Shown: piece after piece, positions 10,650-60,770 of the stretch | Layout of the letters: the number at the start of each line of letters is the position of its first letter | How positions within the stretch are numbered: position 1 is the stretch's first letter | Origin: Escherichia coli 042 | Lineage (GTDB): Bacteria; Pseudomonadota; Gammaproteobacteria; Enterobacterales; Enterobacteriaceae | Direction: 5' to 3' (one strand) | Assembly: GCF_000027125.1 (NCBI RefSeq) | Contig: NC_017626.1 | DNA length: 64,000 nt | Made by a program: the position numbers and the translations under genes | Notes under the pieces: model-generated | Told to the model about the DNA's origin: nothing | What the model saw: only the letters and a program-made list of their open reading frames with translations | Databases searched by the model: none

Positions 10650-11792
10650 TTAATCCATTAACGGAAACCAGCCAGTTCCTTTCGATGCCTGAATTTGATC
10701 CCATAGTTTATCCGGAATGGTTAATTCAGGAACAAGTTGTGGATTAAGGGTTGTTTGAATTTCATGGCTTCTACCTGATTCAGCTAAAGTCACCCATTCT
10801 GGATTTATCACCAGCCCTTTACCGATCGCAACAAGTGGCAGGCCAGTGGAAATTGCTTCTTGAGCCTGAGACGGTGTGCGTATTTTACCTGCGGCGATTA
10901 CCGGCACTCTGCCTGCAATATGATTTAAAATCAATTCAATAGTTCGGGGGCCATTTGGCGACTCAACAGGGTAGCTATCGTTAATACTGACCAGCGAGGT
11001 ATGTATATACGAAATACCGGATGAAATGAGCCGATCAAGGAGTTTATAAGTATCCTCTATCCGCAGCCCCCCTGTTGCAGATTCTTCAGGAGATATTTTG
11101 TAACCGATGGCAAAGGGCTTTGTCGCATATTCATAGACTACATTTTTTACTTCCTGTAATACGGCCAGCGGGAAGCGCATACGTCCTTCGAGATCTCCTC
11201 CCCATCGGTCATTACGCTGGTTAAATAGAGGGGAGAAGAAATTCTGTAGAAGGAATCCGTGCGCACCATGAAGTTCAATGCCATCAAAACCTGCTTTAAT
11301 CGCCCTTTTTGTGACATCTCCGAATGCTCTAATGGTTTCCTGAATTTCGTTTTCAGTCATTTCCCTGCTTTTTACCACTCTCTTCATAAAGTCACCAGAT
11401 TTTACGCTTGATGCGCTGGCACTAATAACATCGTTATTTGGTACAAGCTCCGGGATGGCTTTATTACCGGCGTGGAAAATCTGCAAAATAGCCGGAGCAC
11501 CGCCACTTTTGGCTGCCGCTGCTAACTTTTCAAGGCTGTTAATGAAACGGTCGTCATACGCGGCAAATTCATGAGTAAACCCAATGCCGTTTGGCGTGAC
11601 ATAGGTACATCCTGTTATTACTAAACCAACATTTTGTGAGCGACGTTTATAAAATTCGAGTTCTTGCTCAGAGATGGTTCCATCAGGATTCGCTGACCAG
11701 GTCGTCATAGGAGCCATAACGATACGATTACGTAGCTTTATTTTTTCTGTCAGCATAAAAGGAGAAAACAATGATGGGTGTTTATTTGTCAT
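10650..11792 (-). CDS. NADH:flavin oxidoreductase, Old Yellow Enzyme family (FMN-dependent ene-reductase)
   Basis: 380-aa ORF with OYE hallmarks (N-terminal ...RIVMAPMTTW..., HGAHGFLL motif); GAGG SD 7 nt upstream of the ATG. Confidence 0.8.
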   Translation of the reverse strand: MTNKHPSLFSPFMLTEKIKLRNRIVMAPMTTWSANPDGTISEQELEFYKRRSQNVGLVITGCTYVTPNGIGFTHEFAAYDDRFINSLEKLAAAAKSGGAPAILQIFHAGNKAIPELVPNNDVISASASSVKSGDFMKRVVKSREMTENEIQETIRAFGDVTKRAIKAGFDGIELHGAHGFLLQNFFSPLFNQRNDRWGGDLEGRMRFPLAVLQEVKNVVYEYATKPFAIGYKISPEESATGGLRIEDTYKLLDRLISSGISYIHTSLVSINDSYPVESPNGPRTIELILNHIAGRVPVIAAGKIRTPSQAQEAISTGLPLVAIGKGLVINPEWVTLAESGRSHEIQTTLNPQLVPELTIPDKLWDQIQASKGTGWFPLMD

Positions 11793-12036
11793 AACAATAC
11801 CTCAAATGTTTATCTGATTTTGATGCGTATGTTTTAACTGGTTAGTTGTTGCCAGCTTTGGAACCAAGGTTTATGGCTTTATTTATAATTCCTTCAAAGG
11901 GTTTCTAATAATCTTAATAATTGAGTTGCTGCTTTTTTGTTTCTTTAATGAAATTTCTTTTTGAGTAATTTTATTATTGTTGTGTAGTCAATAAAGGATA
12001 AATGTCAGGGAGATAAGGAATCTCCCTGTAAGATTA

Positions 12037-12957
12037 TTACAAATGTGTTTTATAAAAAGGAATTAATTTATCGAGTGCCTGTTTCACAGGTTCTGGCTTA
12101 TCATACAGGTCGTAATGTGAATAACCTTCAACCACGACCAGCTCTTTATGTTTTGAGGCAGCGCGGCCAATAATTTCGCAGCCGTCACGGTAGGCACCAA
12201 ATGCGCCCACTCTATCGCCCACCACAACCATTATTGGTTGAGTTAACAGGACTTCTGCAAGATGAAATGCATCCCAACCCACGGCAACAGTCTGATGTGA
12301 GAATAGCGAACGATTTACCCCATTAGGTGCACAGCCTCGTGGCGAACGATAATATTCTGTGGCTTCAAAAAGGTCTATTTCTGTTAATCCCGCTTCAAGA
12401 GCTGCATCCGGAGAAGAGGGGAGTAAATCATCTACGCGAAGTTTTGCGCCGTTAGCTTCGTCTGTTCTTTGTTGCGCCATTGCTTCGAGTGCTCCGATAG
12501 GATTAAACGCTGTAAATCCCTCACGCATAAGACGCCCGTAGTTTGCACCCGTGACAGTACCAATAGCTTTAATTCGACGTTCTGTCATTGCGGCATTAAT
12601 GGCATATCCACCTCCACCACAAATACCCAGTACACCAATACGCCCGGCATCAACGTAAGGTAAGGTGGTAAGGTAATCAACGACAATGCTGAAGTCTTTT
12701 ACTCGCATTGTTGGATCTTCCAGATAACGCGGTTCTCCACCGCTGCTTCCCTGAAAACTGGCATCAAAAGCAATGACGATAAAGCCAGCTTTTGCCAGGG
12801 CGGCACCATACACACTACCCGATGTTTGTTCTTTGCAGCTTCCAATTGGATGGGCGCTGATAATGGCAGGATACTTTTTTTCACTATTAAAATCGTCAGG
12901 GAAATAGATATCAGCAGCTATATCCCAGTAAGTATGTTTTATCGAAACAGTTTTCAT
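12037..12957 (-). CDS. Alpha/beta hydrolase, dienelactone-hydrolase-like, with Cys in the nucleophile elbow
   Basis: 306-aa ORF; motif GVLGICGGGG in the place of the usual G-x-S-x-G, suggesting a Cys nucleophile as in dienelactone hydrolases; GGAG SD upstream. Confidence 0.75.
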   Translation of the reverse strand: MKTVSIKHTYWDIAADIYFPDDFNSEKKYPAIISAHPIGSCKEQTSGSVYGAALAKAGFIVIAFDASFQGSSGGEPRYLEDPTMRVKDFSIVVDYLTTLPYVDAGRIGVLGICGGGGYAINAAMTERRIKAIGTVTGANYGRLMREGFTAFNPIGALEAMAQQRTDEANGAKLRVDDLLPSSPDAALEAGLTEIDLFEATEYYRSPRGCAPNGVNRSLFSHQTVAVGWDAFHLAEVLLTQPIMVVVGDRVGAFGAYRDGCEIIGRAASKHKELVVVEGYSHYDLYDKPEPVKQALDKLIPFYKTHL

Positions 12958-13113
12958 TTCAAGCTCCGGGGAATTGCCTAAACAGATTTAAATATCATTT
13001 CTATTATCCGCAACTGGCATTCGTGTTCATGTCGAGAACGGCGTAATAGTATGACTTGTATTGGTTATCATCAATGGTCTAATATCTATCACAGTGTTAA
13101 GTTAAGGTTTACA

Positions 13114-14040
13114 ATGATGAAAATAGAGCCTTCAATTTTGCCTTCTCTTGCCTGGTTTGCGCTGATTGTTCGTGCCGGCAGTTTTTCCAGAGCCGCTTCT
13201 GAAATGGGTATTACGCGGGCCGCATTGTCCCAGAATTTAAAATCTCTTGAGGAACGTCTTAACACCAAGCTGATATACCGTACGACCCGCAATATGTCGC
13301 TTACTGAGGAAGGACAGCGTCTGTATGAAGTGCTGGTGTCGGCTTTGGGGCAAATTGATGATGCTTTGAAAGATGTTGGTGATACCCAACTTGAACCTAC
13401 AGGCCTGTTGAGAATAAATTCCTCCCGTGTTGCAGCACGGATGCTTGTTGAGCCTCATATTGGCGAGTTTCTTACTCGTTACCCCAAAACAAAGATAGAA
13501 CTCATTATGGATGACGGTTTATCTAACATTATTGCGGACGGCTGTGATGTGGGCATACGTCTTGAGCAAGGACTGGATGAGCATATGACTGCCATTCCTG
13601 TTTCTCCGCTTATTAAACTGGTTACTGTGGCATCGCCAGATTATTTAAAAGAGCACGGTATTCCTGAAACGCCTCAGGAACTGAGTAACCATAATTGCCT
13701 TCGGTTGCGGCATAAAAGTAGTGGTGCACTCTCTGCATGGGAGTTTTCTAATGTTGCGGGGGGTAATGAAGAGTTCGAAATAGAGGTTTCAGGTAAGTAT
13801 ATTTCTAATGATGACGAAAGCATGATACGAATGGCGCTGAATGGAACGGGTATCATTCAACATCTGGATTTTGCAATCGCTGAACATATCAATGCGGGCA
13901 AGTTACAGCCGATTCTTGAGGATTGGGCTGTTTCATTTCCTGGATTTTATATTTATGTTTCATCACGGGTGAGAATGCCCTCTAAAGTTCGTGCTTTTAT
14001 TGATTTTATGGTGGAGAAAAGAGTAAAACTCGAAAATTGA
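13114..14040 (+). CDS. LysR-family transcriptional regulator, divergent from the hydrolase/OYE operon
   Basis: ORF 13051..14040; start set at ATG 13114 (MMKIEP...) with AAGG SD; N-terminal LysR HTH (FSRAASEMGITRAALSQNLKSLEERL). Confidence 0.75.
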   Translation: MMKIEPSILPSLAWFALIVRAGSFSRAASEMGITRAALSQNLKSLEERLNTKLIYRTTRNMSLTEEGQRLYEVLVSALGQIDDALKDVGDTQLEPTGLLRINSSRVAARMLVEPHIGEFLTRYPKTKIELIMDDGLSNIIADGCDVGIRLEQGLDEHMTAIPVSPLIKLVTVASPDYLKEHGIPETPQELSNHNCLRLRHKSSGALSAWEFSNVAGGNEEFEIEVSGKYISNDDESMIRMALNGTGIIQHLDFAIAEHINAGKLQPILEDWAVSFPGFYIYVSSRVRMPSKVRAFIDFMVEKRVKLEN

Positions 14041-14195
14041 TGATATGTGTAATTGATGGTTGCTCTGGGCGAATATCGGTAAGAGGAATAACGTAATCAT
14101 TAGGACGCGTTTACATAATAAACTTTCTGATAATTAATACTTATTTTCTATACGGCCATAATATCAATTATCATTATCACCGGTAATGTGGTTAA

Positions 14196-17071
<2,876 letters not shown>

Positions 17072-17621: not shown

Positions 17622-20600
17622 ATGTCACGTTATAAAACAGGTCATAAACAACCACGATTTCGTTATTCAGTTCTGGCCCGCTGCGTGGCGTGGGCAAATA
17701 TCTCTGTTCAGGTTCTTTTCCCACTCGCTGTCACCTTTACCCCAGTAATGGCAGCACGCGCGCAGCATGCGGTTCAGCCACGTTTGAGCATGGAAAATAC
17801 CACAGTAGCTGCTGATAATAATGTGGAGAAAAATGTCGCGTCGTTTGCCGCAAATGCCGGGACATTTTTAAGCAGTCAGCCAGATAGCGATGCGACACGT
17901 AACTTTATTACCGGAATGGCCACAGCTAAAGCTAACCAGGAAATACAGGAGTGGCTCGGGAAATATGGTACTGCGCGCGTCAAACTGAATGTCGATAAAG
18001 AATTCTCGCTGAAGGATTCTTCGCTGGAAATGCTTTATCCGATTTATGATACGCCGACAAATATGTTGTTCACTCAGGGAGCAATACATCGTACCGACGA
18101 TCGTACTCAGTCAAATATTGGTTTTGGCTGGCGTCATTTTTCAGGAAATGACTGGATGGCGGGGGTGAACACCTTTATCGACCATGATTTATCCCGTAGT
18201 CATACCCGCATTGGTGTTGGTGCGGAATACTGGCGTGATTATTTGAAATTGAGCGCCAATGGTTATATCCGGGCTTCTGGCTGGAAAAAATCGCCGGATG
18301 TTGAGGATTATCAGGAACGCCCGGCGAATGGCTGGGATATTCGTGCTGAGGGCTATTTACCTGCCTGGCCGCAGCTTGGCGCAAGCCTGATGTATGAACA
18401 GTATTATGGCGATGAAGTCGGGCTGTTTGGTAAAGATAAACGCCAGAAAGATCCACATGCGATTACCGCTGAAGTGAATTACACGCCAGTGCCTCTTCTG
18501 ACCCTGAGTGCCGGGCATAAGCAGGGCAAGAGTGGTGAGAATGACACTCGCTTTGGCCTGGAAGTTAATTATCGGATTGGCGAACCTCTGGAAAAACAAC
18601 TCGATACAGACAGCATTCGCGAGCGTCGAATGCTGGCAGGCAGCCGCTATGACCTGGTTGAGCGTAATAACAATATCGTTCTTGAGTATCGCAAATCTGA
18701 AGTGATCCGTATTGCTCTGCCTGAGCGGATTGAAGGTAAGGGCGGTCAGACACTTTCCCTGGGACTTGTGGTCAGCAAAGCAACTCACGGACTGAAAAAT
18801 GTGCAGTGGGAAGCGCCGTCATTACTGGCTGAAGGTGGCAAAATTACCGGTCAGGGTAGTCAGTGGCAAGTAACGCTCCCGGCTTATCGTCCAGGCAAAG
18901 ACAATTATTATGCGGTTTCAGCGATTGCCTACGATAACAAAGGCAATGCCTCGAAACGTGTGCAGACAGAAGTGGTTATTAGCGGAGCTGGTATGAGCGC
19001 CGATCGTACGGCGTTAACGCTTGACGGTCAGAGCCGTATTCAAATGCTTGCTAACGGTAATGAGCAAAAGCCGCTGGTGCTGTCTCTGCGCGACGCCGAG
19101 GGCCAGCCAGTCACGGGCATGAAAGATCAGATCAAGACTGAACTAACCTTCAAACCGGCTGGAAATATTGTGACTCGTACCCTGAAGGCCACTAAATCAC
19201 AGGCAAAGCCAACACTGGGTGAGTTCACCGAAACTGAAGCAGGGGTGTATCAGTCTGTCTTTACTACCGGCACGCAGTCAGGTGAGGCAACGATTACTGT
19301 TAGCGTTGATGGCATGAGCAAAACCGTCACTGCAGAACTGCGGGCCACGATGATGGATGTGGCAAACTCCACCCTGAGCGCTAACGAGCCATCAGGTGAC
19401 GTGGTTGCTGATGGTCAGCAAGCCTACACGCTGACACTGACAGCGGTGGACTCCGAGGGTAATCCGGTGACGGGAGAAGCCAGCCGCCTGCGACTTGTTC
19501 CGCAAGACACTAATGGTGTAACCGTTGGTGCCATTTCGGAAATAAAACCAGGGGTTTACAGCGCCACGGTTTCTTCGACCCGTGCCGGAAACGTTGTTGT
19601 GCGTGCCTTCAGCGAGCAGTATCAGCTGGGCACATTACAACAAACGCTGAAGTTTGTTGCCGGGCCGCTTGATGCAGCACATTCGTCCATCACCCTGAAT
19701 CCGGATAAACCGGTGGTCGGCGGTACAGTTACGGCAATCTGGACGGCAAAAGATGCCAATGACAACCCTGTAACAGGCCTCAATCCGGATGCACCGTCAT
19801 TATCGGGCGCAGCAGCTGCTGGTTCTACGGCATCTGGCTGGACAAATAATGGTGATGGGACGTGGACTGCGCAGATTACTCTCGGCTCTACGGCGGGTGA
19901 ATTAGAAGTTATGCCGAAGCTAAATGGACAGGATGCGGCAGCAAATGCGGCAAAAGTAACCGTGGTGGCTGATGCATTATCTTCAAACCAGTCGAAAGTC
20001 TCTGTCGCAGAAGATCACGTAAAAGCCGGTGAAAGCACAACCGTAACGCTTATTGCAAAAGATGCGCATGGCAACGCTATCAGTGGTCTTTCGTTGTCGG
20101 CAAGTTTGACGGGGACCGCCTCTGAAGGGGCGACCATTTCCAGTTGGACCGAAAAAGGTGACGGTTCCTATGTTGCTACGTTGACCACAGGCGGAAAGAC
20201 GGGCGAGCTTCGTGTCATGCCTCTCTTCAACGGCCAGCCAGCAGCCACCGAAGCCGCGCAGTTGACGGTCATCGCCGGAGAGATGTCATCAGCGAACTCT
20301 ACGCTTGTTGCGGACAATAAGACTCCAACGGTTAAAACGACGACGGAACTCACCTTCACCGTGAAGGATGCGTACGGGAACCCGGTCACCGGGCTGAAGC
20401 CAGATGCACCAGTGTTTAGCGGTGCCGCCAGCACGGGATCAGCGCGACCTTCAGCAGGAAGCTGGACAGAGCAAAGTAATGGGGTCTACGTGGCGACCTT
20501 AACGCTGGGATCGGCTGCAGGTCAGTTGTCTGTGATGCCGCGAGTGAACGGCCAAAATGCCGTTGCTCAGCCACTGGTGCTGAATGTTGCAGGCGACGCT

Positions 20601-21875
20601 TCCCGGGCAGTGATCAGTGATATGGCGGTGAAGGTGAATAACCAACTGGCAAATGGACAGTCTGCTAACCAGGTAACCCTGACCGTCGTGGACAGCTATG
20701 GTAACCCGTTGCAGGGGCAAGAAGTTACGCTGACTTTACCGCAGGGTGTGACTAGCAAGACGGGGAATACAGTAACAACCAATGCGGCAGGTAAGGCGGA
20801 TATTGAGTTGATATCAACCGTTGCAGGGGAACTTGAAATCGCGGCCGCGGTGAAAAACTCTCAGAAGACGGTCACGGTGAAATTCAACGCGGATGCCAGC
20901 ACCGGTCAGGCAAACCTGCAGGTAGACACCGCCGTTCAAAAAGTGGCAAACGGCAAAGATGCCTTTACGCTGACGGCGACCGTTGAGGATAAAAACGGTA
21001 ACCCTGTTCCAGGCACTCTGGTGACCTTTAATCTGCCCCGGGGTGTCAAGCCGCTTACTGGCGATAATGTCTGGGTGAAAGCCAACGATGAGGGGAAAGC
21101 AGAGTTGCAGGTGGTTTCCGTGACTGCCGGAACCTATGAGATCACGGCGTCGGCAGGAAATGACCAGCCTTCAGATGCGCAGACTATAACGTTTGTAGCC
21201 GATAAGGCTACCGCAACCGTCTCCGGTATTGAGGTGATTGGCAACTATGCACTGGCGGACGGCAAAGCCAAACAGACGTATAAAGTTACGGTGACTGATG
21301 CCAATAACAACCTGTTGAAAGATAGCGACGTGACGCTGACTGCCAGCCCGGCTTCGTTAAACCTGGAACCGAATGGCACTGCGACAACGAATGAGCAAGG
21401 GCAGGCTATTTTCACCGCTACCACTACTGTTGCGGCGACATACACACTCAAGGCGCAAGTGAGTCAGACCAACGGTCAGGTATCAACGAAAACTGCCGAA
21501 TCTAAATTCGTCGCGGATGATAAAAACGCGGAGCTCACCGCATCATCTGATGTGCAATCGCTGGTGGCGGATGGGAAATCGACTGCGAAGCTGGAGGTTA
21601 CCCTGTTCTCGGCAAATAACCCTGTTGGGGGGAATGTGTGGGTCGACATTGAGGCTCCGGAAGGAGTGACGGAGAAGGATTATCAATTCCTGCCGTCGAA
21701 AAATGACCATTTCGTGAGCGGAAAAATCACGCGTACATTTAGTACCAGCAAGCCTGGTGTCTATACGTTCACATTTAACGCCCTGACCTATGGCGGGTAC
21801 GAAATGAAGCCAGTGACGGTGACCATAACCGCGGTGGATGCCGATACGGCAAAGGGCGAGGAGGCGATGAAGTAA
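17622..21875 (+). CDS. fdeC: Intimin/invasin-family inverse autotransporter adhesin with tandem bacterial Ig-like domains (FdeC / EaeH), full length
   Basis: 1417-aa ORF; N-terminal signal/anchor and intimin-like beta-barrel region followed by repeated ~100-aa Ig-like units (recurring ...TLT.VD..GNPVTG... motifs). Confidence 0.9.
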   Translation: MSRYKTGHKQPRFRYSVLARCVAWANISVQVLFPLAVTFTPVMAARAQHAVQPRLSMENTTVAADNNVEKNVASFAANAGTFLSSQPDSDATRNFITGMATAKANQEIQEWLGKYGTARVKLNVDKEFSLKDSSLEMLYPIYDTPTNMLFTQGAIHRTDDRTQSNIGFGWRHFSGNDWMAGVNTFIDHDLSRSHTRIGVGAEYWRDYLKLSANGYIRASGWKKSPDVEDYQERPANGWDIRAEGYLPAWPQLGASLMYEQYYGDEVGLFGKDKRQKDPHAITAEVNYTPVPLLTLSAGHKQGKSGENDTRFGLEVNYRIGEPLEKQLDTDSIRERRMLAGSRYDLVERNNNIVLEYRKSEVIRIALPERIEGKGGQTLSLGLVVSKATHGLKNVQWEAPSLLAEGGKITGQGSQWQVTLPAYRPGKDNYYAVSAIAYDNKGNASKRVQTEVVISGAGMSADRTALTLDGQSRIQMLANGNEQKPLVLSLRDAEGQPVTGMKDQIKTELTFKPAGNIVTRTLKATKSQAKPTLGEFTETEAGVYQSVFTTGTQSGEATITVSVDGMSKTVTAELRATMMDVANSTLSANEPSGDVVADGQQAYTLTLTAVDSEGNPVTGEASRLRLVPQDTNGVTVGAISEIKPGVYSATVSSTRAGNVVVRAFSEQYQLGTLQQTLKFVAGPLDAAHSSITLNPDKPVVGGTVTAIWTAKDANDNPVTGLNPDAPSLSGAAAAGSTASGWTNNGDGTWTAQITLGSTAGELEVMPKLNGQDAAANAAKVTVVADALSSNQSKVSVAEDHVKAGESTTVTLIAKDAHGNAISGLSLSASLTGTASEGATISSWTEKGDGSYVATLTTGGKTGELRVMPLFNGQPAATEAAQLTVIAGEMSSANSTLVADNKTPTVKTTTELTFTVKDAYGNPVTGLKPDAPVFSGAASTGSARPSAGSWTEQSNGVYVATLTLGSAAGQLSVMPRVNGQNAVAQPLVLNVAGDASRAVISDMAVKVNNQLANGQSANQVTLTVVDSYGNPLQGQEVTLTLPQGVTSKTGNTVTTNAAGKADIELISTVAGELEIAAAVKNSQKTVTVKFNADASTGQANLQVDTAVQKVANGKDAFTLTATVEDKNGNPVPGTLVTFNLPRGVKPLTGDNVWVKANDEGKAELQVVSVTAGTYEITASAGNDQPSDAQTITFVADKATATVSGIEVIGNYALADGKAKQTYKVTVTDANNNLLKDSDVTLTASPASLNLEPNGTATTNEQGQAIFTATTTVAATYTLKAQVSQTNGQVSTKTAESKFVADDKNAELTASSDVQSLVADGKSTAKLEVTLFSANNPVGGNVWVDIEAPEGVTEKDYQFLPSKNDHFVSGKITRTFSTSKPGVYTFTFNALTYGGYEMKPVTVTITAVDADTAKGEEAMK

Positions 21876-21910
21876 TATTAAGAATATGAAAGTAACATTC
21901 TAATAAACAA

Positions 21911-21945
21911 TAATGGCGTTGACATCTTCAACGCCATTATTTATT
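21911..21945. terminator. Bidirectional rho-independent terminator between fdeC and ykgA
   Basis: 8-bp stem GGCGTTGA / TCAACGCC (21915-21922, 21928-21935) with a 5-nt loop, flanked by A/T-rich runs on both sides. Confidence 0.6.
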
Positions 21946-21995
21946 GAATTGCCTGACAGTAGTCTCGTTATAAATTCATGTAAACATCGCTACAG

Positions 21996-22853
21996 CTAAA
22001 CCGGGCGAACGGGGATAAAAATTTCGCAAACAATGTTATTGCTATCAATTTCGACGAAGTTTTCATTGTAATAAAATCGCTCAATATCACTGCCGTTCAC
22101 TCTGGCTAACCCCCTGGCAGGTAATTCCATCAGATAGAGGTTTCGCGCCCATTCAGGGTAGTGCTCCCACTCACCTTCATAGCGGAAAGAGGCATACAGT
22201 CCTCGGTTAATTGTCCACTCTTTCGACATCTCTGAATCGGTTTGTTTGCATACCGTACCGGCAAAAGTTTCAACTGTGAGCAAATCGACCGATTTTGTTG
22301 ACGGTTCGAATGTGGAGACGAAATAGATATCCGTCTTAAAACTCTTCATACATCTGGCTAAATGATGACGTCGCAGTTTGACTTCTTCATCCGGTGATTT
22401 ATTCGACACTTCAATGTCATATTTAAATGAATCGCCAAAAATAGGTGTCTCAGGAAAGTTGACTAATCTACACTCCGTCTTTTGCTGTTGACGTATTAAA
22501 AAAGAAGGGAAGATATTTGCGAGATCCCAATAATCACGGTGGCGGTATTCACGGGGAGAGCAGCCGAATAACTTTTTAAATTCGCGGCTGAATGACTGCT
22601 GTGAGTCAAAATGCAAAGAGAGTGCAATATCAAGCATAGATTTCGCGGTGAGTCGGACAAGAATGGCGGCACGACAAAGCCTTCGTTTGCGAATGTATTC
22701 TCCTAAAGGCACATGCATGAAATTTCGGAACAGAAGCTGGATGTTGCGCCTGCTGTAGCCAGATTTCTGTGCGATATCTTCGATTGAAATAGGGTGCTCA
22801 AGATTGCACTCAATCCACTCCAGGAGCTGCTGTAGAATCTTCTGCCTGATCAT
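21996..22853 (-). CDS. ykgA: AraC/XylS-family regulator with C-terminal GyrI-like effector-binding domain
   Basis: ORF 21996..22886 begins at GTG without an SD; start set at ATG 22853 (MIRQKILQQLLEWIE...) preceded by GGAG. N-terminal AraC HTH pair, C-terminal GyrI-like region. Confidence 0.75.
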   Translation of the reverse strand: MIRQKILQQLLEWIECNLEHPISIEDIAQKSGYSRRNIQLLFRNFMHVPLGEYIRKRRLCRAAILVRLTAKSMLDIALSLHFDSQQSFSREFKKLFGCSPREYRHRDYWDLANIFPSFLIRQQQKTECRLVNFPETPIFGDSFKYDIEVSNKSPDEEVKLRRHHLARCMKSFKTDIYFVSTFEPSTKSVDLLTVETFAGTVCKQTDSEMSKEWTINRGLYASFRYEGEWEHYPEWARNLYLMELPARGLARVNGSDIERFYYNENFVEIDSNNIVCEIFIPVRPV

Positions 22854-23085
22854 CACATTCTCCGTTAATTCTTTGTCATATCGCACATTTTCGTTATGTC
22901 CTGGGCCCTAAGTGTATCAAAAATAGCAAGTCCCAAGGCAAAAGCACTGATAGCGTCTGCTTCATTGCCCCAAAAATAGAGAGGTTTCAGTCCTACATTA
23001 TTAATGAATTTTTTGCATAAGTGATATCAAAATCCACATACTAATTTGAGGTTACGTTTTAACGTAGACTCATTGTTCATACCTA

Positions 23086-23970
23086 ATGGAGGGACTGACA
23101 GTGGAATTTTCCGTATTAAGTAACAATCTGAAAATGCCGATGATGGGATTTGGTGTTTTTCAGGTTACCGATAAAGACGTGTGCAAACAGTCAGTGTTGA
23201 ATGCTATCCGCACGGGTTATCGACTCATCGACACTGCAGCGGTATACGGTAATGAAGATGCCGTCGGTGAAGCCGTTCGTGAAGCCATATCTGAAGGTTT
23301 ATGTACCCGAGAAGAGTTATTTATAACGTCTAAATTGTGGGTGCAGGATATGTTGAATCAGGATATTGCAGCAGCAGGTATTGAAGCATCATTAAAAAAA
23401 TCGGGACTGGAATACTTCGATCTCTTTTTATTGCACCAGGCCATGCGCGATTATTTCAGTGCGTGGCGTGCACTCGAAGATGCCTATGAAGAGGGCAAAT
23501 TAAAAGCGATTGGGGTTTCCAATTTCTACCCTCATGTTCTGGCGAACTTTTGTGAAACGGTAAGAGTTAAACCGATGGTCAACCAGGTCGAGTTGCATCC
23601 CTATTTTGCCCAACCAGAGGCGCTGGCAACCATGAAGTATTATAACGTGCAGCCTGAAGCATGGGCTCCGTTAGGTGGTGGACGACATAAACCCTTTGAA
23701 AATAATCTGCTTCAGAGTATTGCAGATGCCCATCAAAAATCGATTTCTCAGGTCATTCTGCGTTGGAATATTCAACGGGGAGTGGTCGTTATTCCGAAAT
23801 CGACACATCAACAGCGTATCGAAGAAAATTTTGCTATTTGGGATTTCTCACTGACAGAGAAAGAAATGGCGCAAATTAGTTCGCTTGATTTGGGTTATGT
23901 TGGGGAATCGGTAAAACATTTTAATCCTGAGTTTGTTCGTGGTTGTCTTGCTGTAAAAATACATGATTGA
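23086..23970 (+). CDS. Aldo-keto reductase (DkgA/YvgN-like), apparently intact
   Basis: 294-aa ORF (…NNLKMPMMGFGVFQV…IDTAAVYGNE…); alternative GTG start at 23101 preceded by GGAGGG. Divergent from ykgA. Confidence 0.75.
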   Translation: MEGLTVEFSVLSNNLKMPMMGFGVFQVTDKDVCKQSVLNAIRTGYRLIDTAAVYGNEDAVGEAVREAISEGLCTREELFITSKLWVQDMLNQDIAAAGIEASLKKSGLEYFDLFLLHQAMRDYFSAWRALEDAYEEGKLKAIGVSNFYPHVLANFCETVRVKPMVNQVELHPYFAQPEALATMKYYNVQPEAWAPLGGGRHKPFENNLLQSIADAHQKSISQVILRWNIQRGVVVIPKSTHQQRIEENFAIWDFSLTEKEMAQISSLDLGYVGESVKHFNPEFVRGCLAVKIHD

Positions 23971-24129
23971 TATTAATCACTTATTTTACCTGAGACGACA
24001 AGAATCTTTTAACAGGGGAGTGATATTGATCTTCACTCTGTCATATCTCCGGTAATATGGCGTCAGGCTTCATCATCAGAAAGGGGGCCTGACGCCTGAA
24101 AAAGTGAACAACAGACAGTGTTCGGATTA

Positions 24130-24723
24130 TCAATATTCAGTTTTTAACGTTGAACTGGATTCATTACTGCGTTGTTTAAGAATTTCCCGCGCCGAATCTG
24201 CCATTATCATGACAGCACCTGCCAGCATCAGAGTATCTTTCAATACCAGGCGACCAGCACCGGATAAATAAGGGAAACCATGATGAGCGTCACCCAATGC
24301 GGGTACCCATGCCTCCGGGGTGGTGATTAAAAATGAGAGTGTTACCAACGGTGTGGTAAATGCCATCAGCCCTCCCAATAAACCTAACCAGCGATTGACA
24401 GGATTAGCCAAAACCAGCAGAGCAATAATCACCTCCACGACGCCAAGACCGTTGGAAAAACCATAGGTATTATTGGCCGTTTGCCATGCCCTTGCTTCTG
24501 GTTTGTATTCGCCTTCGTGAGTCAGATACTGTTTATAGTCTTCCGGGTGTTCATAAAAGAACGACATTAGTGGACTGTTTGCGACGAATGGTGTAATGCT
24601 GTCTGCCTCGTAAGGGACAAACTTTAATAACCCAATCCACATAAAAACAATCGCAATACTCAGACGAATCAATGTCAGGCCAATTTTATCTCCCCGACTT
24701 AACAGGTGCAGGTATTTCTCCAT
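24130..24723 (-). CDS. rclC: RclC, inner-membrane protein of the reactive-chlorine resistance operon (DUF417)
   Basis: ORF 24130..24732; start set at MEKYL (ATG 24723); multiple hydrophobic segments; last gene of rclABC. Confidence 0.8.
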   Translation of the reverse strand: MEKYLHLLSRGDKIGLTLIRLSIAIVFMWIGLLKFVPYEADSITPFVANSPLMSFFYEHPEDYKQYLTHEGEYKPEARAWQTANNTYGFSNGLGVVEVIIALLVLANPVNRWLGLLGGLMAFTTPLVTLSFLITTPEAWVPALGDAHHGFPYLSGAGRLVLKDTLMLAGAVMIMADSAREILKQRSNESSSTLKTEY

Positions 24724-24734
24724 TGTAAACATCC

Positions 24735-24971
24735 TTATCTATACAATACTGCTGTTGCGGTTGAATTATTATCAATTCGCATCGATGTGACTTTCCAGGA
24801 TGAAGCATTATATTTTCTGGCCATATCAGCAATGGCATCCTCCAGAACTGTCGGTGATGCTGATACTGACGAGACGCTGATATGTTTCAGAATTATTTTA
24901 TCATCTGCATTGGTGGAAAATGCCATAACGCCAGATAATAGTGTTGCAAATAAAACAGATTTTTTAAACAT
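24735..24971 (-). CDS. rclB: RclB, small periplasmic protein (DUF1471, YdgH/BhsA/McbA family)
   Basis: ORF 24735..24986; start set at MFKKSVLFATLLSGVMAFSTNA (signal peptide), 78 aa. Confidence 0.8.
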   Translation of the reverse strand: MFKKSVLFATLLSGVMAFSTNADDKIILKHISVSSVSASPTVLEDAIADMARKYNASSWKVTSMRIDNNSTATAVLYR

Positions 24972-25079
24972 ATAAAATACCATCAATGAAGTGATTAAGA
25001 AGTTATAGAGTAACAGAGAATTAATGAGATTCTTTTCTCTGAGACGCCAGAATATTTGTTCTGGCGTCTGATTTTGAGT

Positions 25080-26405
25080 TTATTTGACTAATGAAAATAG
25101 ATCATTGAGTGATTCGCTCATCGACGGATGAGTAAATATCTGATCGCGTAATATGCTATAAGGCAGCCCGGCATCCATCACCATTTTCACTATATTAATC
25201 ATCTCGTGGGAGTCAACACACAGCAGTGATGCCCCTAATATACGTTGGGTTTTATTATCAACAATCGCTTTTAATACCCCACGGGTATCGTTCATCACTC
25301 TTGCGCGCGGAATTGCAGCTACAGGCAATATCACCACCTGAATATCAGCACCACTCTCTTTGGCTTGTTCTTCTGTCATACCAACCCTGGACAGGGGCGG
25401 TGTCATAAATACGGAATAAGGCACATTTTTCCGATCATCAGTACTACGTTTGCCTTCACCCAGTAACTCATCACGTACAATGCGGTAATCATCCAGTGAT
25501 ATGTAAGTAAATTGCAGCCCGCCGGTAACATCTCCCATCGCCCAAATATTGTCTGCGGTGGTATGTAATCGCTTGTCAACGACAATTGCCCCGCGCTCGT
25601 TTACTGCGATACCTGCATTTTCTGGATGTAACGAAGCGGTAGCCGGTTGACGACCGGAAGCTATTAACAGTGCATCCACCGCCAGTTGGGCGTGCTCGCT
25701 ATGCACTTGCACTTGATTTTCATGGTGACTGATTCGCTCCACATGGGCATTGAGGATTATATCGACGCCCTGATCGCGTAAAATCGTCGCGATATTATCA
25801 GCAATATCCCGATCTTCCCGAGGCAAAAACAGCGAAGCTGCTTCTAAAATGGTTACCTTGCTGCCAAAATTAGCGAACATAGAGGCGAACTCAACGCCAA
25901 TATATCCGCCGCCCAAAATACCTAAATGCCCAGGCAATTCTTTTAGATTAAGTAATCCGGTGCTGTCATATACTCCTGGCGTGGTGGTAATTCCAGGAAT
26001 TGGCGGAACCACGGTTTGTGCACCGGTATTAATAAAAATTTTCTCGCCATGAATTTCCAGATTTCCCTCAGGCCGATGAACACGCAGGCTATGATTATTG
26101 ATAAACTCCGCCTGGCCGTCGATCACGTCGATATTGGGCATATCCGCAAGATTATGAAAATTCTTATTACGTAAAAAATTAACCACTTCATTTTTACGCT
26201 GTATGGCACGGACAAAATCTGTGTGCTGCTGTGCGTCATGAACCAATGTTTTGGTTGGGATGCAGCCGATATTAATACAGGTCCCGCCATACATTGCATT
26301 TGATTGTTCGATGAGAGCCACACGCCAACCTGCTTTTGCCAGCGTGACGGCTAATGTTTTTCCAGCCTTGCCAAAACCAATAATAACTGCCTGATATTTA
26401 TTCAT
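25080..26405 (-). CDS. rclA: RclA, pyridine nucleotide-disulfide (FAD) oxidoreductase
   Basis: ORF 25080..26432; start set at MNKYQAVIIGFGKAGKTLAV (Rossmann GxGxxG); conserved CINIGC redox-active disulfide motif. Confidence 0.9.
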   Translation of the reverse strand: MNKYQAVIIGFGKAGKTLAVTLAKAGWRVALIEQSNAMYGGTCINIGCIPTKTLVHDAQQHTDFVRAIQRKNEVVNFLRNKNFHNLADMPNIDVIDGQAEFINNHSLRVHRPEGNLEIHGEKIFINTGAQTVVPPIPGITTTPGVYDSTGLLNLKELPGHLGILGGGYIGVEFASMFANFGSKVTILEAASLFLPREDRDIADNIATILRDQGVDIILNAHVERISHHENQVQVHSEHAQLAVDALLIASGRQPATASLHPENAGIAVNERGAIVVDKRLHTTADNIWAMGDVTGGLQFTYISLDDYRIVRDELLGEGKRSTDDRKNVPYSVFMTPPLSRVGMTEEQAKESGADIQVVILPVAAIPRARVMNDTRGVLKAIVDNKTQRILGASLLCVDSHEMINIVKMVMDAGLPYSILRDQIFTHPSMSESLNDLFSLVK

Positions 26406-26631
26406 GATGATTTCCTGTCGAAACGCGTTCATTTGACATCATGACTATAGACGCAAAAGAGCAAATAACATTTCTTCACAACGCTTGATATTTTGTCTTA
26501 TCGTCTGGTATTTTCTTTTTCTTAATCAGAATCACAAAACAAAAATCATGATTAACTATTTGATGGTATTAGATTAATTATTGACTAAGATTGTTGGTGT
26601 TTGTAATCAAAAAACCACTCAGGAGTCTGAT

Positions 26632-27486
26632 ATGGATGCTCTTAGCCGTTTGTTGATGCTTAACGCTCCACAAGGAACGATCGATAAGAATTGCGTGTTA
26701 GGAAGTGACTGGCAACTTCCACATGGTGCCGGGGAATTGTCGGTTATTCGTTGGCATGCGTTAACGCAAGGAGCGGCGAAGCTGGAAATGCCGACGGGAG
26801 AGATTTTTACATTACGCCCGGGAAATGTGGTCCTGCTACCACAAAATTCAGCTCATCGCCTGAGTCATGTCGATAATGAATCGACCTATATTGTCTGTGG
26901 CACTCTTCGGCTGCAACATTCGGCGCGTTATTTTTTAACGTCTTTGCCGGAAACGCTGTTTGTAGCACCAGTGAACCATAGCGTGGAATATAACTGGCTG
27001 AGGGAGGCGATCCCGTTTTTACAACAGGAATCCAGATCGGCAATGCCGGGAGTGGATGCACTGTGTAGCCAGATCTGCGCTACATTCTTTATCCTCGCGG
27101 TGCGTGAGTGGATTGCACAGGTTAATACAGAGAAAAACATTCTCAGTTTGCTTCTGCATCCACGTCTTGGTGCGGTAATACAGCAAATGCTGGAAATGCC
27201 AGGACACGCCTGGACCGTCGAATCGCTGGCCAGCATCGCCCACATGTCCCGGGCAAGTTTTGCCCAGCTTTTCCGTGATGTTTCCGGAACCACGCCGCTG
27301 GCTGTATTAACAAAGTTGCGTCTACAAATAGCGGCCCAGATGTTTTCCCGGGAAACGCTCCCTGTTGTGGTGATCGCTGAGTCAGTAGGCTATGCCAGTG
27401 AATCATCTTTTCACAAGGCGTTTGTTCGCGAGTTTGGTTGTACCCCGGGAGAATATCGGGAAAGGGTCAGACAGCTTGCACCCTGA
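26632..27486 (+). CDS. rclR: RclR, redox-sensing AraC-family activator of rclABC
   Basis: ORF 26581..27486; start set at ATG 26632 (MDALSRLLML) with AGGAG SD; C-terminal AraC HTH; Cys at KNCVL and IVCGT; divergent from rclA. Confidence 0.85.
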   Translation: MDALSRLLMLNAPQGTIDKNCVLGSDWQLPHGAGELSVIRWHALTQGAAKLEMPTGEIFTLRPGNVVLLPQNSAHRLSHVDNESTYIVCGTLRLQHSARYFLTSLPETLFVAPVNHSVEYNWLREAIPFLQQESRSAMPGVDALCSQICATFFILAVREWIAQVNTEKNILSLLLHPRLGAVIQQMLEMPGHAWTVESLASIAHMSRASFAQLFRDVSGTTPLAVLTKLRLQIAAQMFSRETLPVVVIAESVGYASESSFHKAFVREFGCTPGEYRERVRQLAP

Positions 27487-28004
27487 ATAAAACCGCCAGA
27501 AATCAGGGCAAAGATAATCCGCATTCCGGGAGTTGTGAGCCTTTCAACTATTTCTATTTCCAAGTTTTTTATATATTTTTTTGAAGTGGTCTGGCTTAGT
27601 AATTAAATAAAAGATACAAACTAAATTGCTTCAATTAAATAAAATGCCGATTATTACTTGATACGTAATTATTGTTGGTGATTTTGTTTGTACACCATCA
27701 GTGTATATCTCAATAACCCCTGAATAAGTAGCACTGAATAGGTATAAGGGATGTGGCCATTTTTAAATGGATTTCTTATGCCAAAAATGATCGTCGATCT
27801 CCCCATAAAATGTGAGCGATGCCGAAAGAAATAAAATTAGTTATTGCATTTGAAGTTTGGATGAAAGATTATCATTTGTCATACAAATGAGGGGTGGTAT
27901 GTTGCTAGCCAATTAAAAAAGAACGCCATATTTATTGATGATTGCTCCCCCGGAAGGGGGGAACCATCGGGCATAAATGGGCATGAAGTAATGGAGTATT
28001 AGTT

Positions 28005-28724
28005 GTGAATGTCAATTTCTTTGTCACCTGTATTGGTGACGCCCTGAAATCAAGAATGGCACGAGACTCCGTGCTGCTACTGGAAAAACTCGGCTGTCGC
28101 GTAAATTTCCCAGAGAAACAGGGATGCTGCGGTCAGCCTGCGATCAATAGTGGTTATATCAAAGAAGCGATTCCAGGGATGAAAAATCTGATCGCCGCAC
28201 TGGAGGATAACGACGATCCCATTATTTCACCGGCTGGCTCCTGTACCTATGCCGTAAAAAGTTACCCAACGTATCTGGCGGATGAGCCTGAATGGGCATC
28301 ACGTGCCGAAAGGGTTGCCGCGCGTATGCAGGATCTCACCTCTTTTATTGTTAATACATTAGGGGTAGTCGATGTAGGTGCCAGTTTGCAAGGGAGAGCG
28401 GTGTATCACCCATCTTGTAGCCTGGCCCGTAAGCTGGGGGTGAAGGACGAGCCACTTACGTTGCTGAAAAATGTGCGTGGACTGGAGCTGTTGACCTTTG
28501 CTGAACAGGATACCTGCTGCGGATTTGGCGGCACGTTCTCGGTCAAAATGGCCGAAATATCCGGCGAGATGGTGAAAGAAAAGGTTGTGCACCTGATGGA
28601 AGTCCGCCCTGAGTATTTAATTGGTGCTGACGTGAGTTGCCTGCTGAACATCAGTGGGCGATTACAACGGGAAGGGCAGAAAGTCAAAGTGATGCATATT
28701 GCTGAAGTGCTGATGAGCCGCTGA
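28005..28724 (+). CDS. ykgE: YkgE, LutA-like Fe-S oxidoreductase subunit (CCG domains)
   Basis: 239-aa ORF starting at GTG with GGAG SD; Cys-rich CCG-type motifs (CCGQPA, CCGFGG). Confidence 0.85.
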   Translation: MNVNFFVTCIGDALKSRMARDSVLLLEKLGCRVNFPEKQGCCGQPAINSGYIKEAIPGMKNLIAALEDNDDPIISPAGSCTYAVKSYPTYLADEPEWASRAERVAARMQDLTSFIVNTLGVVDVGASLQGRAVYHPSCSLARKLGVKDEPLTLLKNVRGLELLTFAEQDTCCGFGGTFSVKMAEISGEMVKEKVVHLMEVRPEYLIGADVSCLLNISGRLQREGQKVKVMHIAEVLMSR

Positions 28725-49984: not shown

Positions 49985-50165
49985 CTCTGCCGGATGCGGC
50001 GTGAACGCCTTATCCGGCCTACGAGTGGCGCGAGAATCTGTAGGCCTGATAAGCGTAGCGCATCAGGCATTTGTCACCATTGCCGGATGCGGCGTGAACG
50101 CCTTATCCGGCCTACGAATGGCACGAGAATTCTAGGCCTGATAAGCGTAGCGCATCAGGCAGTCT
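49985..50165. repeat. REP/BIME element pair (two inverted REP units) between yahG and yahI
   Basis: Two copies of GCCGGATGCGGCGTGAACGCCTTATCCGGCCTACG and two of TAGGCCTGATAAGCGTAGCGCATCAGGC in alternating orientation. Confidence 0.7.
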
Positions 50166-50210
50166 GGCGTTGGTCATAACCCCATCACCCTCTGTAGCGG
50201 ACATAACAAC

Positions 50211-60289: not shown

Positions 60290-60770
60290 GGTTGTATTCG
60301 ACAACCGATGCCTGATGCGCCGCTGACGCGGCTTATCAGGCCTACGGGATGAACTGAACTGTAGGTCGGATAAGACGCATAGCGTCGCATCCGACAACCG
60401 ATGCCTGATGCGCCGCTGACGCGGCTTATCAGGCCTACGGGGTGAACTGAACTGTAGGTCGGATAAGACGCATAGCGTCGCATCCGACAACCGATGCCTG
60501 ATGCGCCGCTGACGCGGCTTATCAGGCCTACGGGGCGTGCTGAACTGTAGGTCGGATAAGACGTATGGCGTCGCATCCGACAACCGATGCCTGATGCGCC
60601 GCTGACGCGACTTATCAGGCCTACGGGGTGAACTGAACTGTAGGTCGGATAAGACGCATGGCGTCGCATCCGACAACCGATGCCTGATGCGACGCTGACG
60701 CGGCTTATCAGGCCTGCGGGGTGAACTGAACTGTAGGTCGGATAAGACGCATAGCGTCGCATCCGACAAC
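60290..60770. repeat. Tandem REP/BIME array (about five copies of a roughly 90-bp composite unit) between prpB and prpC
   Basis: Near-identical units CGACAACCGATGCCTGATGCGCCGCTGACGCGGCTTATCAGGCCTACGGGGTGAACTGAACTGTAGGTCGGATAAGACGCATAGCGTCGCATC repeated head-to-tail with point variants. Confidence 0.75.

Follow-up and report, generated by a model that had tools for sequence, protein, structure and literature searches.

The window analysed here, a stretch of Escherichia coli DNA of 64 kb in all, contains at 24130–27486 the minus-strand genes rclC, rclB and rclA together with rclR, which is encoded on the plus strand. Their coordinates, collected in Table 1, were taken from the RefSeq annotation of a strain whose DNA is the same here, and the gene names agree. 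The assignment of the locus to rclR/rclABC, made in the first-pass annotation from the sequence itself, was borne out, as all four proteins pass the NCBIfam equivalog cut-offs, contain the fitting Pfam domains, and are 96–100% identical to their counterparts in K-12. In its identity and general mechanism the locus can thus be regarded with high confidence as the canonical E. coli reactive-chlorine/hypothiocyanite defence module. The cluster is intact and ordinary, and the locus, being well studied and already characterised, offers nothing new in itself; it belongs to the core defence of E. coli against neutrophil-derived oxidants, and the 3.6-kb stretch is present at a coverage of at least 80% in 5047 of 5426 complete E. 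coli genomes. RclR is switched on by HOCl, N-chlorotaurine, or HOSCN, and then activates rclA, rclB, and rclC. According to the literature, the three genes activated by RclR form one operon, whose control is exerted at the rclA promoter.

The divergence of rclR and rclA across a 226-bp region, as originally described, agrees with the RefSeq-based coordinates, and spacers of 108 bp and 11 bp separate rclA from rclB and rclB from rclC, respectively. The longest open reading frames found mechanically begin upstream of the accepted starts, at 26432 for rclA, 26581 for rclR, 24732 for rclC, and 24986 for rclB. The operon and its flanks had been called A/T-rich, which holds clearly for rclB (36.7% GC) and for the spacers (31–35%), but only mildly for the whole unit, whose GC content of 44.7% vs. 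49.5% for the window corresponds to the 17th percentile of same-size windows, while rclR reaches 50.8%. Horizontal acquisition, suggested by this A/T-richness, was rejected because the GC deficit is modest.

Table 1. Coordinates of the genes, of the conserved elements, and of the candidate regulatory sites of the rcl locus within the window.
Feature	Position	Strand	Length	Description and basis
rclC	24130-24723	-	197 aa	Inner-membrane DUF417 protein; NF040476, 341.7 bits (cut-off 275)
rclB	24735-24971	-	78 aa	Small periplasmic YdgH/BhsA family protein; NF040474, 150.7 bits (cut-off 100)
rclA-rclB spacer	24972-25079		108 bp	
Alternative -10 hexamer TATAAC, rclB	25002-25007			Alternative to the weak TACTCT
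Candidate -10 hexamer TACTCT, predicted rclB promoter	25007-25012	-		30 nt downstream of box 2
Palindrome at box 2	25042-25069		11-bp arms	Perfect in Escherichia
Box 2, second copy of the putative RclR box	25043-25069	-	27 bp	Match to the box-1-derived pattern/matrix
rclA	25080-26405	-	441 aa	Flavin disulfide-reductase family; NF040477, 868.2 bits (cut-off 740)
Divergent regulatory region rclA/rclR	26406-26631		226 bp	31.4% GC
Candidate -10 hexamer TATAGT, rclA promoter	26444-26449	-		Predicted from the spacing to box 1
Box 1, putative RclR operator AGACGATAAGACAAAATATCAAGCGTT	26480-26506	-	27 bp	Cross-genus conservation
rclR ribosome-binding block TCAGGAGTCT	26619-26628			Conserved
rclR	26632-27486	+	284 aa	AraC-family activator; NF040475, 553.7 bits (cut-off 400)
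C21 codon of rclR	26692-26694	+		Context KNCVL
C89 codon of rclR	26896-26898	+		Context IVCGT

RclA, which differs from the K-12 protein by the substitutions R349K, T359I, and M389I (99% identity), matches the Pfam families Pyr_redox_2, Pyr_redox, and Pyr_redox_dim. Its score was compared with those of the sister models for MerA, the Har-type HOSCN reductase, and lipoamide dehydrogenase; the next-best model, NF041853, gave 598 bits, under its own cut-off of 650. The RclA flavoenzyme, with C43 and C48 in its active site, has been described as a HOSCN reductase and a Cu(II) reductase, and the CINIGC motif claimed for it is indeed present as GGTCINIGCIPTK, which holds both of these cysteines. RclB was correctly named a DUF1471 protein, since it matches PF07338, the family known under that name in the literature; it is 96% identical to RclB of K-12 (T46A, I50M, and K78R), and its residues 6–20 are hydrophobic by a simple hydropathy calculation, as distinct from a dedicated signal-peptide predictor, which fits an N-terminal export signal. 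The description of RclC as a membrane protein is likewise supported, by a match to PF04224 (DUF417) and by at least three strongly hydrophobic 19-residue segments with a mean hydropathy of at least 1.87; this protein is 100% identical to that of K-12 and contains no cysteine. RclR is composed of an N-terminal cupin sensor domain (Cupin_6, residues 2–162) and a C-terminal AraC-type double HTH (HTH_18, residues 199–278, with HTH_AraC also matching).

Within the divergent spacer, the sole strongly conserved non-coding block shared by Escherichia, Salmonella, Citrobacter, and Raoultella is a 27-bp element of the pattern AGACG-N5-ACAAA-N7-GCGT, designated box 1, which is proposed here, as a comparative prediction from its conservation, to be the RclR operator. 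Box 1 lies 74–76 nt from the rclA ATG, while the length of the whole spacer ranges from 214 to 237 bp. In eight of eight loci a -10-like hexamer (TATAGT, TATACT, TATAAT, or TACCCT) is found exactly 30 nt downstream of the box, and the same spacing is kept in six further loci of Salmonella and Citrobacter (14 in total); the 30-nt stretch between the box and the hexamer is only 27–50% identical between genera. Species-representative genomes contained 15 exact matches to the box pattern, seven of them in the rcl loci of Salmonella or Citrobacter and the other eight without the rcl promoter architecture, where about nine would be expected by chance according to our own calculation. Absence from this strict scan is uninformative, since it missed species with fitting boxes. 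In a literature search, the reach of which did not extend to the primary RclR paper, no experimentally defined RclR binding site, motif, or rclB start site was found.

On the rclR side of the spacer no cross-genus conservation was seen beyond the ribosome-binding site, and the rclR promoter was not located. A generic sigma-70 promoter scan of the region returned 10 sites vs. 10.6 expected from shuffles, with no enrichment, so that individual hits were given no weight; this applies also to two plus-strand matches that overlap box 1 and could be the rclR promoter. Short repeats in the spacer, e.g., GATTAACTATT and GATTAATTATT placed 22 bp apart, were considered as AraC-type half-sites and rejected, being unconserved outside Escherichia.

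A second copy of the putative box, box 2, is located in the rclA-rclB spacer. Its distance to the rclB ATG is exactly 71 nt in five species, and anything from 10 to 65 nt separates the box from the rclA stop codon. The 71-nt spacing together with a TAnnnT hexamer at 30 nt is found in E. coli, E. albertii, three subspecies of S. enterica, S. bongori, and one Citrobacter. The hexamer reads TATTCT in E. albertii and TATTAT in S. enterica, S. bongori, and Citrobacter; the E. coli candidate, TACTCT, is weak, and an alternative, TATAAC, overlaps it. In Salmonella and Citrobacter the stretch from rclA to box 2 contains canonical intrinsic terminators, and none was found in the 108-nt rclA-rclB spacer of E. 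coli.

Because a copy of the putative box precedes each of rclA and rclB, both in the same orientation, the rcl cluster probably comprises two RclR-dependent units (rclA and rclBC) and not one operon, a reading which we favour on balance and which rests on sequence comparison. Of the earlier view of rclABC as a unit with a divergent promoter, the divergent arrangement stands, while the comparison of box 2 suggests a second promoter before rclB. RclR would act through a 27-bp box that is followed, after 30 nt, by the -10 hexamer and would thus span about -43 to -69 relative to the start site, with the box before rclA driving rclA and the second one, before rclB, driving rclBC. The predicted box-associated promoters have no conserved -35 hexamer, as is usual for promoters that depend on an activator. 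In Escherichia the palindrome at box 2 may double as an RNA hairpin on rclA transcripts, so that the same DNA could serve as an activator site and as the 3' hairpin of the rclA mRNA, possibly also as a roadblock. It was reported in 2025 that the rclB and rclC RNAs are about tenfold less abundant than the rclA RNA, and the authors pointed to "more complexity ... than previously appreciated" in rcl regulation (PMC12096828). The existence of two RclR-dependent units could account for this difference.

The tenfold difference would also be explained if the palindrome were an RNA element and not a protein site, namely a stable 3'-terminal hairpin of the rclA transcripts, which would protect the rclA mRNA or cause part of the read-through to be stopped or processed, and thereby lower the rclBC RNA within a single rclABC operon transcribed from the divergent promoter only. 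We consider this reading clearly less probable than that of two units. The Escherichia box 2 is a perfect palindrome, which starts 10 nt past the rclA stop codon, and as RNA the 39-nt box 2 segment with its 11-bp stem reaches -18.1 kcal/mol (z = -7.6; z = -5.2 for the whole spacer). Salmonella (z = -4.3) and, to a weak degree, Citrobacter (z = -2.2) retain hairpin potential, to which G-U pairs contribute, and its persistence in the latter makes an RNA role possible. However, the sense strand shows no U-tract behind the stem, and in Salmonella and Citrobacter a canonical terminator is already present upstream of the element, whose distance is fixed with respect to the rclB ATG and variable with respect to the rclA stop codon. 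Moreover, the change in the Salmonella stem produces a G-G mismatch and no compensatory pair, and the conserved loop, ACAAATAT, matches the invariant ACAAA of box 1, which is not palindromic. A scan of positions 21500–28500 on both strands against Rfam, with E-values up to 1, revealed no known RNA family.

The reading that departs least from the literature has a single RclR site and a single promoter, the one before rclA, for the whole rclABC operon, and takes the likeness of the two boxes as a matter of coincidence and shared ancestry. We regard it as doubtful. Box 2 matches 14 of the 18 invariant columns of box 1, and about 0.7 sites with at least 14 matches are expected in a shuffled 64-kb window; with a weight matrix derived from non-Escherichia box-1 sites only, it scores 5.2 bits vs. 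28.3 bits for box 1. A recognisable box 2 is missing in Raoultella, where the corresponding sequence has diverged past recognition, and part of the conservation elsewhere reflects shared ancestry, as the species with box 2 are related. On the other hand, no other non-self site of the window matches as well as box 2, which ranks second of about 128,000 positions by the matrix, and no further RclR-box-like site occurs beyond boxes 1 and 2 in the 64-kb window. This runner-up lies in the one spacer, and in the one orientation, in which a promoter would be needed; from the expected 0.7 sites per window, the chance of finding one in the 108-nt spacer in the right orientation was estimated at about 6e-4. 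The spacings of exactly 30 nt and 71 nt persist despite the low identity of the intervening sequence (33–47% between genera for the adjoining spacer vs. 63–89% for box 2), and the terminators between rclA and rclB in two genera also speak against a single operon.

The proposal of two RclR-dependent units is a testable prediction, as it specifies a candidate RclR operator, a second promoter, and two RclR-dependent transcription starts, predicted near window positions 26437 and 25000 (about 320033 and 318596 on the minus strand of K-12 NC_000913.3), and it bears on a question already flagged in the field, the differing expression of rclB and rclC vs. rclA. If true, it would for the first time define the RclR operator at the sequence level, which would permit a search for further RclR targets and help to clarify what drives the orphan copies of rclA on plasmids.

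The regulator itself retains both sensor cysteines claimed for it in the first-pass annotation: C21 and C89 align with those of K-12 RclR, and neither is lost. Among the 120 recovered clusters of RclR orthologues, C21 is invariant in the 118 and C89 in the 120 that cover the respective position, which includes clusters from Escherichia, Salmonella, Citrobacter, and Raoultella. Cys-21 and Cys-89 are the residues oxidised on RclR activation, and they are the only two named in a review of the subject (PMC7464077). RclR is 99% identical to the K-12 protein, from which it differs by the substitutions C86Y, L111V, and T154I; with Y86 in place of C86, the C86-x-x-C89 motif of K-12 is gone. Of the 5426 complete genomes, 14 carry the Y86 allele and 4660 the sequence with C86. 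Since position 86 varies among orthologues, being occupied by His in Salmonella, Citrobacter, and Raoultella, by Ser in one E. albertii cluster, and by Tyr in another orthologue, this rare allele is, judging from the alignments, probably neutral. That C86Y alters sensing, through the loss of a cysteine pair that in K-12 could compete with or resolve the C21-C89 disulfide, is improbable: the residue is only three positions away from the sensor C89 and the allele is rare, but position 86 is unconserved whereas C21 and C89 are invariant, and the review names these two alone as oxidised on activation.

The surroundings of the module are variable. Its adjacency to other detoxification genes, which had been considered worth noting, is not conserved, as the neighbourhoods differ in Salmonella, Citrobacter, Raoultella, and E. 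albertii; a functional link to the neighbouring reductase genes was rejected on this ground and because no box-like site occurs nearby. Five other genera or species retain the divergent rclR/rclA arrangement amid flanks that differ, and the differences in flanks between genera show that the rcl module moves as a block. It is also worth adding that orphan copies of rclA have spread on plasmid fragments flanked by IS1, without rclR or box 1.

In E. coli K-12 the cluster is known as ykgD (rclR, b0305) and ykgC-ykgI-ykgB (rclABC; b0304–b0301), and it has the same gene order, orientation, and 108-bp and 11-bp spacers, with boxes 1 and 2 identical in sequence. The divergent spacer is 226 bp long here vs. 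225 bp in K-12, owing to one extra A in an A-run, and contains three substitutions. The left flank is intact here and comprises genes for a ykgA-like AraC/GyrI regulator and an aldo/keto reductase, whereas their K-12 counterparts, ykgA and ykgQ next to IS3, are pseudogenes. The loci of Salmonella and Citrobacter share the divergent rclR/rclA genes, the spacing of box 1 to the -10 hexamer and to the ATG, and the position of box 2 at 71 nt before rclB, but their RclR proteins are 67–71% identical, with His at position 86, and, unlike in E. coli, an intrinsic terminator follows rclA ahead of box 2. The rclBC genes are missing in C. freundii, and the rclB gene of C. youngae is truncated; in the flanks of the Salmonella and Citrobacter loci copper genes of the cus/sil/pco type take the place of the ykg genes. 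As a general class, the activator-dependent promoters of the AraC family have a site that abuts the -35 position, an unconserved -35 hexamer, and blocks placed about one helical turn apart. The putative RclR box follows the same plan, as it abuts the -35 position at promoters whose -35 hexamer is unconserved and its conserved blocks, starting at box positions 1, 11, and 23, also lie about one helical turn apart.

The rcl genes lie in the chromosomal ecp, ykg, rcl, bet, yah, prp region of E. coli and form an ordinary, intact copy of a known and nearly universal locus of this species: the 3.6-kb stretch is found at a coverage of at least 80% in 5047 of 5426 complete E. coli genomes, and is 100% identical around the rcl locus in ECA64 and CB6837. 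Outside the rcl segment the window is 98.9–99.4% identical to ECA64, against 100% within it, a contrast that suggests a recombination mosaic. RclR, RclA, RclB and RclC each score above the curated cut-off of their NCBIfam equivalog (553.7 against 400, 868.2 against 740, 150.7 against 100, and 341.7 against 275, respectively). All four contain the expected Pfam domains and are 99% (RclR), 99% (RclA), 96% (RclB) and 100% (RclC) identical to the characterised K-12 proteins, which bears out the rclR/rclABC unit recognised in the first-pass annotation. The length given there for the divergent region is correct, and the motifs listed are all present: KNCVL (C21) and IVCGT (C89) in RclR, and CINIGC (C43, C48) in RclA. 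The description of the unit as A/T-rich holds for rclB (36.7% GC) and the spacers (31–35%), but not for rclR (50.8%); the whole unit, with 44.7% GC compared to 49.5% for the window, is at the 17th percentile of equal-size windows.

Features of the rcl locus in window coordinates
Feature	Position	Strand	Source or remark
rclC	24130-24723	-	RefSeq annotation of a sequence-identical strain
rclB	24735-24971	-	RefSeq annotation of a sequence-identical strain
box 2 stem (rclA-rclB spacer)	25042-25069		terminator scan; 12 pairs; rcl direction: AGACGCCAGAACAAATATTCTGGCGTC
rclA	25080-26405	-	RefSeq annotation of a sequence-identical strain
divergent rclA-rclR spacer	26406-26631		226 bp vs 225 bp in K-12
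box 1 (divergent spacer)	26480-26506		rclA direction: AGACGATAAGACAAAATATCAAGCGTT
rclR	26632-27486	+	RefSeq annotation of a sequence-identical strain

According to a review (PMC7464077), oxidation of Cys-21 and Cys-89 activates RclR. Alignment with K-12 RclR, the check proposed earlier, shows both redox-active cysteines to be kept; in a set of 120 RclR clusters (Escherichia, Salmonella, Citrobacter and Raoultella), all 118 that cover the position have C21 and all 120 have C89, so the loss of either residue, named at the outset as the observation that would speak against the assignment, is not seen. A third cysteine of K-12 RclR, C86, makes a C-x-x-C motif with C89, which is absent here, residue 86 being Tyr (codon TAT, 26887-26889). 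The alleles were counted with 41-nt queries that had the variant base at their centre, which forces each 28-base megablast seed to span it; Tyr-86 was found in 14 and Cys-86 in 4660 of the 5426 complete genomes. Among orthologues, Escherichia has Cys at position 86, and Salmonella, Citrobacter and Raoultella have His; one E. albertii cluster carries Ser, and another orthologue Tyr. Since the position is not conserved, C86Y is probably a neutral, rare lineage marker.

The neighbours of the rcl genes in the window are a ykgA-like AraC/GyrI regulator, an aldo/keto reductase gene and ykgEFG. They differ in Salmonella, Citrobacter and Raoultella, and E. albertii still has ykgE and ykgF on the downstream side of rclR, but with an intervening lactate permease gene. 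As the flanks change between genera, the four genes act as a module of their own, and their proximity to other detoxification genes, stressed in the first-pass annotation, has no demonstrated meaning. Outside Escherichia, copper/silver resistance genes adjoin the module at three loci (L005, L006, L012), with cusA- and cusB-like genes in Citrobacter, and RND pump fragments, sensor kinase fragments and a PcoE-like gene in Salmonella; this is curious, as RclA is reported to reduce Cu(II). The region left of rcl includes a 6.3-kb segment missing from K-12 (10741-17071), with genes for an NADH-flavin oxidoreductase, an alpha/beta hydrolase, two LysR regulators and two aldo/keto reductases. It is followed by an intact fdeC adhesin gene (17622-21875), the K-12 counterpart of which is the eaeH pseudogene, and by the intact ykgA-like regulator and aldo/keto reductase genes (21996-22853, 23101-23970), represented in K-12 by the pseudogenes ykgA and ykgQ beside IS3. 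In the convergent spacer between the aldo/keto reductase gene and rclC there is a 10-bp GC-rich stem with a long loop (24058-24096, minus strand; GGCGTCAGGC and GCCTGACGCC), downstream of rclC; it is not followed by a T-run, and scanning revealed no canonical rclC terminator. Elsewhere in the window, 60299-60770 and 49990-50170 are REP/BIME-type repeat arrays; one, in the prpB-prpC spacer, comprises 5.1 copies of a 93-bp unit where the ECA64 record annotates a hypothetical protein, and the yahG-yahI REP cluster is ~150 bp longer than in ECA64.

Alignment of the divergent spacers of Escherichia, E. albertii, Salmonella, C. freundii and Raoultella revealed, besides the rclR ribosome-binding site, a single conserved block, box 1, with the invariant columns AGACGAT-N3-ACAAAA-N6-GCGTT. 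A -10-like hexamer (TATAGT, TATACT, TATAAT or TACCCT) starts exactly 31 nt after it in all eight loci, and the rclA ATG is 74–76 nt away, while the spacer length ranges from 214 to 237 bp; the 30 nt between box and hexamer are only 27–50% identical between genera. The arrangement is that of an activator-dependent promoter whose activator site lies at about -43 to -69, and box 1 is probably the RclR operator. A strict 18-base box-1 pattern scanned over species-representative genomes gave 15 matches. Seven are Salmonella or Citrobacter loci, six of them with the hexamer and rclA ATG at the box-1 spacing; in the seventh (L019) the fetched stretch includes the hexamer and the start of rclA and then breaks off. 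The remaining eight, from unrelated phyla, lack the promoter architecture, and by our calculation ~9 are expected by chance. The scan missed the E. coli, S. enterica, S. bongori and Raoultella planticola representatives, though their boxes fetched otherwise fit; the reason is either a different box sequence in the representative genomes or an incomplete scan. Towards rclR, a T-to-G change relative to K-12 at 26583 creates TTGACT (26581-26586), and the A-run at 26609-26614 is one A longer.

A second copy, box 2, coincides with a stem starting 10 nt past the rclA stop codon, and has AGACG-N5-ACAAA-N7-GCGT in common with box 1, in equal spacing and orientation. With up to two mismatches allowed, the two boxes are the only matches to this pattern in the 64-kb window, a descriptive result, as the pattern derives from both sites themselves. 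A fairer test of specificity is a pattern from box-1 conservation alone: box 2 is its best non-self match (14 of 18 positions), with ~0.7 such sites expected per shuffled window. With a weight matrix derived solely from box-1 sites outside Escherichia, box 1 scores highest and box 2 next among ~128,000 positions. The spacing between box 2 and the rclB ATG is exactly 71 nt in E. coli, E. albertii, three S. enterica subspecies, S. bongori and one Citrobacter, and in all of these a TAnnnT hexamer (TACTCT, TATTCT or TATTAT) stands exactly 30 nt downstream of the box. The gap between the rclA stop codon and box 2 is variable (10 to 65 nt). In Raoultella, box 2 is not recognisable. In the simplest interpretation, box 2 and this hexamer would form a separate RclR-dependent promoter for rclBC, built like that of rclA.

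In the main rival reading, the box 2 palindrome would work at the RNA level, forming a 3' hairpin on rclA transcripts. The segment indeed folds at -18.1 kcal/mol (z = -7.6), and hairpin potential is kept in Salmonella and, weakly, in Citrobacter. However, no U-tract follows the stem, canonical intrinsic terminators lie between rclA and box 2 in Salmonella and Citrobacter, box 2 is anchored to rclB rather than to rclA, and its loop is conserved, matching the non-palindromic box 1, all of which argues against a purely RNA role. The DNA and RNA roles are compatible with each other.

C. freundii (L006) and Citrobacter sp. MGH106 (L021) have kept only rclR and rclA, and in C. youngae (L014) a terminator after rclA is followed by an rclB lacking its 5' part, with box 2 deleted. 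Hence rclBC can be dispensed with and decays independently of rclA. A 1.5-kb fragment of the E. coli type (equivalent to 24929-26459) is present on ~250 plasmids of E. coli, Klebsiella, Salmonella, Enterobacter and Citrobacter, many of them conjugative. It contains an intact rclA together with box 2 and the initial 14 codons of rclB; it stops 20 bp short of box 1, lacks rclR, and is adjoined by IS1 in both plasmids inspected (L028, L029).

No definition of an RclR operator or rclB promoter was found in the literature searched, which did not include the primary 2013 paper, and part of the prediction may already be known. The present work adds an RclR allele that is rare and probably neutral, and a testable prediction, based on comparison between species, of an RclR box and a separate rclBC promoter. 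The latter would fit a published puzzle, namely that after HOSCN treatment rclB and rclC RNA are about tenfold less abundant than rclA RNA (PMC12096828).
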